Assembly: GCA_034530875.2 (NCBI GenBank)
Contig: JAVRCJ020000052.1
Coordinates: 1-42,048 of the forward strand
Reading direction: 5' to 3'
Length of the DNA stretch: 42,048 bases
From: Nostoc sp. DedSLP01
GTDB lineage: Bacteria; Cyanobacteriota; Cyanobacteriia; Cyanobacteriales; Nostocaceae
Positions 19,990 through 24,750 of this stretch are shown here, one piece after another. A program made the position numbers and the translations under genes. Every line of letters starts with the position of its first letter. The stretch's first letter is position 1. The notes beneath the pieces were generated by a model. The model searched no databases and was not told the DNA's origin. It saw nothing but the letters and a program-made list of their open reading frames with translations.

Positions 19990-20234
19990 ATATCAATATT
20001 GATATAGAAAAGCTGATTTTAGAGGGAATGCCGATTTCTCCAAGTCAGGCGCGGTTGTTGCAAGCAGAGGTGGAGAGTGAATTGGCGAAGTTGCTGGCTA
20101 ATGAGGGTTTACCAGACAACTTGCTCTCCGGTGGGGTAGTGCCTGGTGGTGCAATTCAAGTAAAGCCCGGAACTAATCCCGCCCAAATGGGGCGACAAAT
20201 AGCACAAGAAATATATCGAGGAATGAAACCATGA
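19986..20234 (+). CDS. Small eCIS-associated hypothetical protein (82 aa)
   Basis: ATGA overlaps at both ends. The INIDIEKLILEG...GRQIAQEIY pattern resembles the small gene usually following the eCIS ATPase. Confidence 0.8.
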   Translation: MNINIDIEKLILEGMPISPSQARLLQAEVESELAKLLANEGLPDNLLSGGVVPGGAIQVKPGTNPAQMGRQIAQEIYRGMKP

Positions 20235-21328
20235 CTAGTAAAAGAATTGCCCAAACAAATGGGCAGCAAAAAAGTGAGAAATCACAAGAAAGTGGAATTT
20301 TACAACGTGCTGCCGTGCGTTCTGTTGCGGATGCAGGGGTGCAATCAACAGAAGATAAAGAAGCACAGCCATTAAGTAATTTGGCTTTATCTAAAGACTT
20401 TAGCCGCGTGCCTATTAGCACAACAAAACCACAGCCGATTATGGCGAAGCTGATGATTGGGCCAGCGGGAGATAAATACGAACAGGAAGCTGATAGGGTA
20501 GCGGCGCAGGTGGTGCAGCGAATCAATGCACCTGCGTTTGTGCACTCAGGTAAAGATGAAACAGTTCAGCGACAGGAGATGGAGACAAAAAATAACGAAG
20601 CAAGACTGATGAGGTCGCCAATCTTACAGCGTAGGTCTAGTGATGGTGGGATGGCTGCTACACCAGACCTGGAAGCCTCCATCAACCGAGCCAGGGGTAG
20701 CGGACGACCGATGGAAAATAATGTCCGGAAACGGATGGAACAAGGGTTTGGGGCAGATTTCAGTGGAGTAAAGATTCACACGAATGCTCAAGCTAACCAG
20801 CTGAATCAATCAATCCAGGCTCGTGCTTTCACAACGGGACAAAATGTGTTCTTTCGACAGGGGGAATATAATCCTGGTAGTCAGGGAGGGCAGGAGTTGT
20901 TAGCGCATGAGTTGACGCATGTGGTGCAGCAGAATGGAGAAGGAAATGCCGTGCAGGGTAAATCATTTTGTTCGTCCCAAATACAACGGAATGGTGACGG
21001 CAGTGACCAAGAGCCAAGCGAGGGATCATTGCGACCGGCATTAGGAAAAGAATTGATGAGAACTATGTATGGCCCCAATTGGTTTGCTAAGGGTGTTTTT
21101 AAGGCGATGAATTTCGCAATGTATGTAGAAGGACAAGAATTAACAAAAGAGCATAACAATGTGTTAGAAGATTCTTTAATTAAAAATAAAAAGGGCGTAT
21201 TAGATACATTGATAGCTGAGAACCCTCACGTAATGAAATCAACCGGTAAAACCCCGATATACTTACTAGGAAAATATGCCGTACATAAGCCTCTCGAATA
21301 TTATTTGAAGAATCAAGAGAAGAAATAA
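20231..21328 (+). CDS. DUF4157 (eCIS core domain) effector with N-terminal leader and unknown C-terminal domain
   Basis: DKYEQEADRVA, FGADFSGVKIHT, ARAFTTGQNVFF and LLAHELTHVVQQ (HExxH at 20906-20920), followed by IQR and a ~112-aa unique tail. Confidence 0.92.
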   Translation: MTSKRIAQTNGQQKSEKSQESGILQRAAVRSVADAGVQSTEDKEAQPLSNLALSKDFSRVPISTTKPQPIMAKLMIGPAGDKYEQEADRVAAQVVQRINAPAFVHSGKDETVQRQEMETKNNEARLMRSPILQRRSSDGGMAATPDLEASINRARGSGRPMENNVRKRMEQGFGADFSGVKIHTNAQANQLNQSIQARAFTTGQNVFFRQGEYNPGSQGGQELLAHELTHVVQQNGEGNAVQGKSFCSSQIQRNGDGSDQEPSEGSLRPALGKELMRTMYGPNWFAKGVFKAMNFAMYVEGQELTKEHNNVLEDSLIKNKKGVLDTLIAENPHVMKSTGKTPIYLLGKYAVHKPLEYYLKNQEKK

Positions 21329-21527
21329 AAAAACAACCGCAAGGAGATAATACCGTTTAAACGTCAATTTACTTCTTACGCTGTTAAGTGACAAATAGGT
21401 TTGTTCTTAATTAGAGTGCGATCGCAGTCACTCTGCAAAAGTGTAATTTAACGTAAATTTGACAAAGCTAAAAAAGCGATGATGGTAAAGTTTTTCACAT
21501 TACATATCACTACAAATCATTAAGAGG

Positions 21528-21770
21528 ATGAAACAATTGAGTAATTTAGATAGAGTTTTAGAAGCGGCAATGGAGCTTCCTTTAGAGCAACAAGAAATGC
21601 TGGTAGAAATTATCAAAAACCGAATTATTGAAAGTCGGCGAGATGAAATTGCATCAGATGCAGCAGTTTCCATTGCTGAATTCCAAGCAGGTAGGTTCAA
21701 AGTCCAGACTGCTAGTGAAGTAATTCAAAAATTACGAGAATATATGACGATTTCAGAATCAGCATGTTGA
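21528..21770 (+). CDS. Orphan antitoxin-like (addiction module) protein, 80 aa
   Basis: LDRVLEAAMELPLEQQEMLVEII...RRDEIA...EFQAG resembles cyanobacterial antitoxins normally followed by a RelE/YafQ-type toxin. No such toxin ORF follows. Confidence 0.6.
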   Translation: MKQLSNLDRVLEAAMELPLEQQEMLVEIIKNRIIESRRDEIASDAAVSIAEFQAGRFKVQTASEVIQKLREYMTISESAC

Positions 21771-21943
21771 ACCCAGAATTCCCGCAATTTCACTTTGCTG
21801 ATTACGTGCATCCCGAAAGTTAGAAATTTGTGATAATCATAGCATTGATTGAGAGTCACGCCAGGGGAATAGGGCGATCGCAGTAGTTCTATAAGGTGCG
21901 TAACAGATTCTACAAAGACTTTTATTTCCTCACCAAAAAGCTG

Positions 21944-24085: not shown

Positions 24086-24163
24086 TTTCGCTGCACCCAA
24101 TCTACATAAGAATGCGATTACTCAATGATTACCTAATCTTGTAGCAACTATCTTAAAACTCAA

Positions 24164-24277
24164 GCGATCGCCCACACATAAATATAGATAAACGTGCGCT
24201 CGCACCATTATTTACTGATTCAACCTGACTTAAAAGTGCGATCGCCCTCCCATAAATATTGATAAACGTGCGATCGC
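24164..24277. repeat. HIP1-24bp-HIP1 module, copies 2 and 3 (40-bp direct repeats 34 bp apart)
   Basis: GCGATCGC-ccacacataaatatagataaacgt-GCGCTCGC (24164-24203) and GCGATCGC-cctcccataaatattgataaacgt-GCGATCGC (24238-24277). Confidence 0.9.
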
Positions 24278-24324
24278 TCCTATAGCAAACTCGACTTAAT
24301 CTTTTATTTTCTCACCAACAACCT

Positions 24325-24750
24325 ATGTTAAACTTTATTCTCATCAGTGGCGATCGCGCCATATTCAACCCCACCTTTGGCAAAGCAATAGTTGCAGTGC
24401 GTCCTGGAATCTTAACTGGTACTGGCATACCAACAATTAACAAAAAGAAAATTTGCCTTTTTGGGGATGAGAAAAAAGTTATTGTCCCTGGTTGTTCTTA
24501 TACGAGTCCGCCAAATGTTACTCCCGGTACAGGAACACTTTCCATTCAATCTTTAGCCATCAATCAAAAAGCCAGAAAAGTTAAATCTAGGCTAACACCA
24601 GTGTTGCTCAAAGGTACTACCTTCACAGCGAGATTTCAAGTTATCGTGCCGGCGACGACTCCAACAGTACCACCACAACCCGACACAATGCTGGTATATT
24701 TTGGTACGGGATTTTTTACTACTACAAATAGGAAAGTAAAAGCGATTTGA
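24325..24750 (+). CDS. Spike-tip protein (Afp10/Pvc10, PAAR-like)
   Basis: FILISGDRAIFNPTFG..V.VRPG, KKICLFGDEK, PGCSY..P...PGTGTL, VLLKG..F.A.F.V and G.G.F.TTN.K.KA match the Afp10/Pvc10-like pattern. Confidence 0.78.
   Translation: MLNFILISGDRAIFNPTFGKAIVAVRPGILTGTGIPTINKKKICLFGDEKKVIVPGCSYTSPPNVTPGTGTLSIQSLAINQKARKVKSRLTPVLLKGTTFTARFQVIVPATTPTVPPQPDTMLVYFGTGFFTTTNRKVKAI

Follow-up and report, generated by a model that had tools for sequence, protein, structure and literature searches.

A variable gene bay with junctions enriched at HIP1 in the contractile injection operon of Nostoc sp. DedSLP01

The DNA analysed here over its full length of 42,048 nucleotides (the window) is contig JAVRCJ020000052.1 of Nostoc sp. 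DedSLP01, contig C52 of genome G000 in the labels used below, where L numbers stand for loci and F numbers for families of short non-coding pieces called bricks. At positions 9639-38389 it carries a contractile injection operon with genes for sheath, tube, Pvc16, AAA ATPase, spike tip, tube initiator, OB-fold spike, gp25 and baseplate. The structural Pfam matches (PF04984/PF17482, PF06841, PF04965, PF04865, PF04717 and PF19267, covering sheath, tube, baseplate and spike) form a single cluster, accompanied by the markers PF14065 (Pvc16), PF00004 (AAA ATPase) and PF13699 (DUF4157) of an extracellular contractile injection system (eCIS), and, judged from its genes alone, the operon is an ordinary eCIS. 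The question raised by this locus concerns the interval between a conserved open reading frame (ORF) of 82 residues and the spike-tip gene, hereafter the bay, where copies of HIP1, the 8-base palindrome GCGATCGC, lie between the genes: how does such an interval gain and exchange its contents, and has HIP1 a part in it? A preliminary description, whose gene order was borne out by ORFs and Pfam matches, had seen here an expandable effector bay recombining at HIP1, like an integron without a local integrase. The bay is indeed variable among relatives, its junctions are enriched at HIP1, its orientation is fixed, its cassettes belong to a pool shared with other sites, and anchor sequences are duplicated. 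Based on these results, the bay would appear to grow without an integrase, incoming DNA being anchored by homology on one side and joined on the other at HIP1 or at a microhomology nearby—a reading that we regard, with some reserve, as probable.

Matches to the spike-tip protein were found in 33 of the 127 genomes of the genus and in 66 of the 389 genomes of the family. From the relatives 38 loci were taken, 30 of which (L013-L042) share the layout of the window, or as much of it as the contig allows; loci with other operon layouts or broken ones (L043-L050), as well as two from the genome itself (L051-L052), were not counted as bays. The window and its 30 relatives thus make 31 bays, three of them cut on the left and 28 complete, and the bay interval of the complete ones, the window included, ranges from 358 to 6,427 bp. 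The 31 effector-type ORFs fall, by their last 130 residues, into 28 families, neither effector tail of the window being present in the 30 relatives; a few tails match a nuclease, deaminase or nucleotidyltransferase, and three loci have two effector-type genes. Among the 71 small bay ORFs scanned, those that could be named are mostly HigB, HicA/B, Phd/PIN, BrnT, YafQ-like, XisH/XisI and Uma2, the rarer ones being a few transposases, one Imm21 (L014) and two Tox-PL-2. The bay of L025 has no gene at all, only eight HIP1 and the pieces between them. The picture of an expandable effector bay recombining at HIP1 therefore stands as far as variability and junction enrichment are concerned, but the bulk of the HIP1-bounded cargo consists of type II toxin-antitoxin and XisH/XisI genes, not of effectors. 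Nor do spike-tip units, counted earlier among the exchangeable ones, look like cassettes, two spike matches occurring in only one of the 31 loci, the window itself.

HIP1 is found 7,599 times in the 8.57-Mb genome (0.89/kb), its density outside ORFs of at least 100 residues being 0.71/kb. Such a load, together with the XisH/XisI genes, would be in keeping with a Nostoc-like cyanobacterium. The segment 20231-24750 contains nine exact copies, seven between the genes of the bay (21418, 21874, 22153, 22306, 24164, 24238 and 24270) and one in each spike copy (21969 and 24350); at least nine are present in 1.5% of the 3,638 genome windows of 4,520 bp. The non-coding DNA of the bay holds seven HIP1 per 1,117 bp, compared with 0.8 expected (Poisson P 2e-5). 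Across the 31 bays, 145 copies lie in 26.5 kb of non-coding DNA (5.47/kb), about eight times the intergenic background, an excess in line with the preliminary description; outside the bay the density in non-coding DNA of these loci is 1.01/kb. The claim that the boundaries coincide with HIP1 or near-HIP1 octamers is correct for the seven exact sites and, in the looser sense, for 22341 and 24196 with one mismatch and 22274 with two; three joins discussed below do not agree with it.

Concerning the junctions at which the matching relative differs between the left and the right side, 93 of the 164 two-sided ones are located at HIP1. After merging like ones, 72 of the 137 junction types are at HIP1 (one mismatch at most), compared with 17% of the covered non-coding positions, so that the breakpoints of variable blocks are enriched at HIP1 as proposed. 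In the one-sided test the excess is two-fold only, with 197 of the 591 non-coding alignment ends at HIP1 versus 100 expected. A shared HIP1 ends the alignment in 448 of 1,544 cases on the left (29%) and in 482 of 1,471 on the right (33%), the values for other shared 8-mers being 1,395 of 22,655 (6%) and 537 of 18,059 (3%), respectively. Within the coding arm left of the bay a shared HIP1 is terminal in 0 of 452 and 6 of 524 cases. The control right of the bay gave 182 terminal HIP1 among 1,468, the 14 commonest cases all deriving from one 24-nt insert in the baseplate gene, and upstream of the sheath gene HIP1 are too few (6 and 4) for a judgement. In all five bays with a higBA cassette, the cassette begins exactly at HIP1, next to four kinds of left neighbour, its right end existing in two forms that part about 10 nt before HIP1.

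All 3,756 inter-bay alignments are same-strand, and brick matches face forward (downstream) in 122 of 122 cases in the bay and in 12 of 12 and 37 of 43 at two further sites. Since HIP1 is palindromic, exchange at HIP1 only should yield both orientations, and the fixed orientation thus points to something asymmetric that sets the direction. Exchange purely from HIP1 to HIP1, as originally envisaged, is at variance with this orientation and with the 65 of the 137 junction types that lie off HIP1.

It should be added, as a separate observation, that the 24-nt insert just mentioned is in-frame and hairpin-like and directly follows a HIP1 in the baseplate gene of 11 of 24 relatives (window ~28124; L013-L041); the baseplate gene of the window is without it, the HIP1 at that site having drifted.

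The recurring HIP1-to-HIP1 bricks, 20-75 bp long, lie between the bay genes. Cutting the bay non-coding DNA of the 31 bays at HIP1 (one mismatch at most) gave 182 segments, 114 of them in 18 families and 68 singletons. F0 (24 nt) has 42 copies in 21 loci, F1 (32 nt) 22 copies in 15 loci and F2 (30 nt) nine copies in nine loci. F0 is followed by any of F1, F3, F13, F2, F7 or the higBA cassette, and F1 by three named families; toxin-antitoxin cassettes and bricks change their order between bays, and tandem F0-F1 runs differ in copy number. The possibility that bricks are genome-wide dispersed repeats was rejected for F0, F1 and F7, none of which was found in the genome outside this bay (75% identity, beside a HIP1), and is partly true for F2, the type of which occurs at five other places. 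F2 represents the left arm and loop of a GTAG-type repetitive extragenic palindrome (REP), whole at G000:C21:91107; GTAG REPs are described from Nostoc and Anabaena in PMC3733652. A GTAG-tagged hairpin of 20-40 bp as found beside a Y1 gene is represented by 22163-22191 and by the full form of F2, not by F0 or F1. One F2-type REP, at G000:C2:391403, has HIP1 in place of its right arm with the last REP bases kept, and looks as if converted in place. Brick runs fold chiefly through HIP1-HIP1 pairing (z-scores -3.9 and -4.8); structured RNA was discarded as an explanation, there being no Rfam match (E up to 1) and the folding resting largely on that pairing.

Similar arrangements were seen elsewhere. 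An unrelated tandem array at G000:C1:349586-349764 has five HIP1 with spacers alternating between 30 and 43 nt, i.e. a two-brick pattern as in F0/F1 with a different sequence, and F2-F0 or F0-F1 runs occur at further unrelated sites (L136, L140 and L129), in two of these next to PIN-type or XisH/XisI genes.

The pool of cassettes and bricks is shared with two other kinds of site, the first being the region upstream of recQ. Among the 30 best matches of the higBA cassette, six are in the eCIS bay, 16 just upstream of recQ and eight elsewhere. The recQ loci (L072, L177-L195), selected for carrying higBA or F0 and hence yielding no frequency, contain the same hicAB, higBA and antitoxin cassettes and F0/F1/F2 bricks, in some genomes also a DUF4157 gene, and their bay ends at a HIP1 one base before the recQ start. 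The recQ-upstream piece is present more than once in six of 19 recQ loci, and all seven extra copies end at the HIP1 preceding the recQ start (four exact, one with one mismatch, two interrupted), continuing into bricks and not into recQ. Inserts like SDR5, a small dispersed repeat (SDR)—the name being applied by likeness of length and insertion point—interrupt HIP1 at 32 ends in 20 loci of the recQ bays and 31 times in the genome of the window. The recQ site of that genome has none of these cassettes.

The second site is another contractile injection system (CIS) cluster, at G000:C39:20477-23598 (L051), with three tandem leader-bearing effector-type genes. Their pairwise homology of 94-96% ends near codon 95, each start is preceded by HIP1 at a distance of 72 nt, and the homology begins at the first HIP1 base in two of the three pairs and 4 nt earlier in the third. 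In the 41 loci of this cluster examined, an exact HIP1 precedes 68 of the 76 leader-bearing genes, in 66 cases by 68-78 nt, and F0 and F2 are met with again. The same cassettes and bricks being found both here and before recQ, the system is not confined to the eCIS operon in which it was first described. Orthology of the second cluster with the thylakoid CIS of Anabaena was considered and could not be shown, the tube matching All3324 only with E 8e-16.

The pieces of the bay in the window are listed in Table 1.

Table 1 Components of the bay in the window, including both anchors
Feature	Position	Strand	Evidence
Conserved 82-residue ORF, left anchor of the bay	19986..20234	+	tblastn
Effector-type gene 1: low-complexity leader, DUF4157/eCIS_core and unique C-terminal domain tipA	20231..21328	+	PF13699 E 1e-33
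Remnant of an xisI cassette end: last 12 codons (21353-21391) and tail, closed by HIP1 21418	21353..21425	+	
Orphan antitoxin-like ORF, 80 residues	21528..21770	+	atlas and L072 homologue
Right end of a higBA cassette: first ~20 codons of higB, upstream region, HIP1 21874	21752..21881	-	
Spike-tip upstream allele 1 and 5' 208 nt of the spike-tip gene, truncated copy	21882..22151	+	PF19267 positions 1-68
HIP1 22153, then GTAG-type REP hairpin (22163-22191); left border of the block that apparently came in	22152..22191	+	
Brick run F2, near-HIP1 22274, F0, HIP1 22306, F7, near-HIP1 22341	22247..22348	+	
Effector-type gene 2: leader and Ntox11 domain	22430..24085	+	PF15521 E 2e-44
Brick run F2, HIP1 24164, F0, near-HIP1 24196, F1, HIP1 24238, F0, HIP1 24270	24134..24277	+	
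Spike-tip upstream allele 2 and intact spike-tip gene (24325-24750), right anchor of the bay	24278..24750	+	PF19267 E 2e-45

The left anchor was found in 27 of the 30 relatives with 66-98% identity, the remaining three loci being cut by the contig end. The start of effector gene 1 overlaps the stop codon of the upstream gene, no HIP1 precedes it, and it has in common with the relatives only its leader and usually the core; HIP1 as its 5' border, assumed previously, is thus not supported, and the first effector appears to be exchanged within its leader. Its tipA domain is found in none of the 30 relatives' loci and has 19 relatives in the representative library. Two stubs were added to the earlier gene list, namely the 3' end of xisI before HIP1 21418, a 95% match to the xisI 3' end of L033, and the higBA end before HIP1 21874, which is 92-98% identical to the complete higBA cassettes of L014, L032, L033, L036 and L042. 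The 80-residue ORF has as its nearest atlas cluster a 'putative addiction module component' (score 0.93); its homologue in L072 sits before a YafQ/RelE-like toxin, a partner missing in the window.

Spike-tip upstream allele 1 is present also in L014, L015, L028, L032 and L036, and allele 2 is common to L016 and L022-L027. The truncated and the intact spike copy share 201 of 208 nt, i.e. seven differences. HIP1 22153 with the REP piece is found in L040 and L024 as well, its overlap with the spike break amounting to 2-3 nt only (AG/CAG), and the F0-F7 run also precedes the second effector in L027. The leader of gene 2 is 82% identical to that of gene 1 at the nucleotide level, the Pfam scan revealing no DUF4157 (PF13699) match in gene 2. 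Among the matches listed in the genome collection, the closest to its Ntox11 protein have 44% (Saccharopolyspora) and 35-37% identity (Sorangium). Sequencing depth, taken from contigs of two possible source runs, is even over 19000-22066, 22122-24447 and 24503-26500 (443/459/456), and the repeat of the spike tip is therefore real; an assembly artefact as its cause was rejected on account of this depth and of separate contigs on either side of the repeat. A promoter scan of the bay gave 10 sites against 7.4 expected by chance, and no terminators were found.

Several further observations concern the operon and its homologues. An ORF of 159 residues lies between the 82-residue ORF and the first effector in L013, L014, L016, L023, L027, L031, L032 and L037; the L013 copy matches Amidase_2, and the window does not have it. 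Relatives of the Ntox11 domain (window 22757-24085) occur as several nearby copies in Sorangium genomes (L154-L176). Outside the bay, a 1,338-residue ORF at 12743-16759 has internal repeats and no Pfam match, its orthologues being about 780-1,120 residues long with 35-65% identity in most relatives, and its neighbours are far less variable. Degraded operon copies were met in L126 (G076), L146 (G146) and L015 (G008). In the first, bricks join directly to a HIP1 inside the spike gene, which is cut there; in the second, the 82-residue ORF is cut and connected via bricks to the baseplate gene; in the third, the tube-initiator gene breaks off at about codon 137, a short way before a HIP1.

The integrase-free growth proposed above may be pictured as follows. 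The interval between the 82-residue ORF and the spike-tip gene would serve as an accretion site, at which DNA arriving from a related strain undergoes ordinary homologous pairing on one side—with the spike tip and downstream genes, with an effector leader or with a shared brick—its other end being joined at a very short match, mostly HIP1 or else 2-5 nt near one. The homologous arm would set both site and orientation, and the micro-joint would keep the resident array in place and could duplicate a 5' piece of the anchor. Homology in the downstream gene combined with a free upstream end joined at HIP1 or a short match would in this way account for the duplicated anchors at both recQ and the spike. 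Later deletions, many ending at HIP1, would erode old cargo to stubs and to short HIP1-to-HIP1 bricks, and these could then supply extra homology for exchange within and between sites.

As for the window, the resident state was probably higBA-spike, the block REP-bricks-Ntox11-bricks-spike having presumably been joined into the spike gene already present. In L014, which is nearest to the window on both flanks (94-98% protein identity in the flanking genes), the bay ends in higBA-HIP1-spike, and higB-spike lacking the Ntox11 block is seen in a contig of another run; both end as the left part of the window does, and the Ntox11 block with allele 2 would accordingly be the newcomer. We infer the order of events, a role of RecA and of DNA uptake, and an active processing of HIP1; comEC is present in the genome. 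The model agrees with the report that transformation of PCC 7002 is raised when the homology arm terminates in a homologous HIP1 (10.1101/2024.09.10.611283) and with the view, put forward in PMC13756078, that HIP1 is an adaptation for transferring genes, and it suggests that HIP1 is a natural joining point for incoming DNA.

A number of results weigh against growth by homologous anchoring and joining at HIP1. Besides the junction types off HIP1 (65 of 137), it should be noted that the junction counts are not independent events, the loci including kin, and their significance is thus overstated, that some junctions are local divergence only, and that alignment ends lean to any well-conserved word. 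In the window, the left joins of the xisI remnant (21353) and of the higBA remnant (21752) are not at HIP1. Neither is the spike break (22151) a HIP1-by-HIP1 join: the fragment does stop one base before HIP1 22153, but none of the 31 intact spike genes carries a HIP1 at that position, so that the break previously placed at HIP1 holds for one side only. The two spike copies are 96.6% alike and the nearest relative reaches 94% at most; being closest to each other, they imply either a very close strain as donor or a duplication within the lineage (intragenomic). At the second CIS cluster, only 10 of 49 pairs of tandem units lose their homology within 5 nt of HIP1, and in 22 of the 49 it extends 30-35 nt farther. 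The HIP1 there (L053-L092) lies within the 17-nt spacer of a promoter-like element (TTGTGT in 47 of 66, TACTCT in 34 of 66) and may therefore be kept for transcription; with the 10 of 49 pairs and this spacer, the case is weaker than the C39 units alone suggest. Neither an excision joint nor a repeat-skipping joint was found in the contigs of the two possible source runs, contigs being prone to drop rare forms, and, as reported in 10.64898/2026.07.31.742098, number and methylation of HIP1 were of no help to the editing of N. punctiforme by conjugation. As a matter apart, exchange or methylation at the spacer HIP1 of the second CIS cluster could tune effector expression.

Among other explanations, the one surviving best, although unlikely, takes HIP1 as passive, the bay being a hypervariable site subject to homologous recombination and to slippage among short repeats, with near-matches converted to HIP1 and retained while the flanks drift; the ending of alignments at HIP1 would then be apparent only. 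This would accommodate the roughly half of the junction types situated elsewhere (65 of 137), the copy number of the F0-F1 tandems, which varies as slippage would give, and the REP at G000:C2:391403 with its seeming conversion in place, a methylation-guided repair route to new HIP1 having been proposed in PMC4390886. Past a shared HIP1, however, the sequence switches to another recurring family and not to a drifted homologue, all seven duplicated recQ pieces end at HIP1 or a derivative of it, and in conserved coding DNA alignments hardly ever end at a shared HIP1.

Less plausible again is a dedicated recombinase encoded elsewhere and recognising an asymmetric site with a HIP1 core, by which cassettes would be excised and inserted as by an integron integrase acting in trans. 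The fixed orientation and the cargo rich in toxin-antitoxin genes would fit it, PMC4390886 cites site-specific recombination at HIP1 in PCC 7002, and five tyrosine-recombinase matches in the genome are above the cut-off. The flanks of the 153 bay HIP1 are biased as well, with T just before in 60% and C or T just after in about 73% (26% and 61% genome-wide), a bias that may only mirror a few brick families. On the other hand, as the preliminary description had it, there is no local integrase: no integron integrase in the genome is above the cut-off (TIGR02249 at best 40.2 bits versus 265), and the 25 window proteins scanned include no recombinase of any kind. The many imprecise joins and gene stubs, the bricks devoid of an Rfam match, the contigs of the possible source runs free of an excision joint and the duplicated anchors, which cassette integration would not be expected to produce, argue against it too.

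Very improbable is, finally, that the breaks are made by a REP-associated HUH transposase (RAYT/TnpA-REP), the bricks being REP halves and HIP1 only a favoured rejoining point: several bricks correspond to the left arm of a GTAG REP truncated close to its loop, a Y1/RAYT-like gene at G000:C33:36713 is flanked by REPs of the type found at 22163-22191, and one bay, L038, contains a Y1 gene, but the commonest bricks, F0 and F1, have no REP counterpart in the genome and HIP1 lies just upstream of only 1/18, 1/24 and 0/47 genomic REPs of three types.

In a wider and so far speculative extension, heterocystous cyanobacteria might possess an integrase-free gene capture, in which a host enzyme cuts or pairs at (methylated) HIP1 and splices fragments into a few polarised bays, the effector bays of injection systems included, so that a pool of effectors and toxin-antitoxin genes circulates; this could then be a real function of HIP1, whose role is described as open for three decades (PMC5861425, PMC13756078). 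The bays contain natural junctions in dozens of genomes and as such bear on that function; they would also explain how effectors are renewed in cyanobacterial injection systems. The literature within reach, subscription journals lying beyond it, revealed no paper linking HIP1 with contractile injection and no title on HIP1-jointed cassette arrays; Elhai 2008 (on SDRs), likewise beyond reach, may describe some of the bricks.

Compared with known systems, the window resembles the Afp/PVC-like eCIS in its sheath, tube, baseplate, Pvc16, AAA ATPase, spike-tip and DUF4157 genes, as far as genes alone can tell. DUF4157 is reported as an effector marker, with XisH, XisI, BrnT, HigB-like and YoeB genes near eCIS (PMC11297309), and DUF4157 genes were already known as likely eCIS cargo (PMC8894136, PMC11297309); HIP1 joints and cassette turnover, as seen in the window bay, are not mentioned in the parts of PMC11297309 consulted. 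Since toxin-antitoxin and XisH/XisI genes also occur upstream of recQ, some caution is needed: those next to eCIS operons may travel with the cassette pool as passengers, without being cargo for injection. Polymorphic toxin systems (Rhs, CDI, MafB) combine a conserved N-terminal part with exchanged C-terminal tips and orphan toxin modules. The effector-type genes with their 28 tail families among 31 are similar in this respect, the difference being that the extra units of the bay are whole genes with their own leader and that an immunity-family gene was found once only (Imm21, L014).

HIP1 itself has been tied to recombination in Synechococcus plasmids and cloned repeats, and is a target of SDR5 in Nostocaceae (cited in PMC4390886 and PMC5861425). 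There, too, it is a point of exchange or insertion, and SDR5-like inserts interrupt the HIP1 of the recQ bays, but those reports deal with plasmids, cloned repeats or one 21-nt element and not with natural gene arrays; unlike SDR-type dispersed repeats, F0 and F1 are not dispersed in their own genome.

Integron arrays and clusters of attC sites lacking integron integrases (CALINs) consist of units in the same orientation and variable order, with many type II toxin-antitoxin pairs and a pool shared among sites. The uniformly oriented units of the bay, their changing order, their richness in toxin-antitoxin genes and the single pool among sites are all alike. The bay differs in having no IntI above the cut-off, imprecise junctions, gene stubs (xisI, higB and spike tip) and duplicated anchors; no attC-like structure was found in it by folding and Rfam (E up to 1), an attC covariance model not having been run. 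An integron was thus rejected, the genome being without IntI above the cut-off and the junctions not being those of precise whole cassettes: the bay resembles an integron array in the way it works, without being one.

Homology-facilitated illegitimate recombination, described from Acinetobacter, Streptococcus and Pseudomonas stutzeri, combines a RecA-dependent homologous anchor with a join at a few matching bases (PMC6382021). The footprints at the bay and at recQ would fit such an anchor with a micro-homologous joint, with RecA in a putative role. This process usually deletes recipient DNA beside the anchor, whereas the duplications seen here require the joint to lie inside the anchor or at its edge. 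The bay is distinguished, moreover, by a micro-joint that is mostly one fixed, genome-wide motif, and by repeated events that build arrays at few sites.

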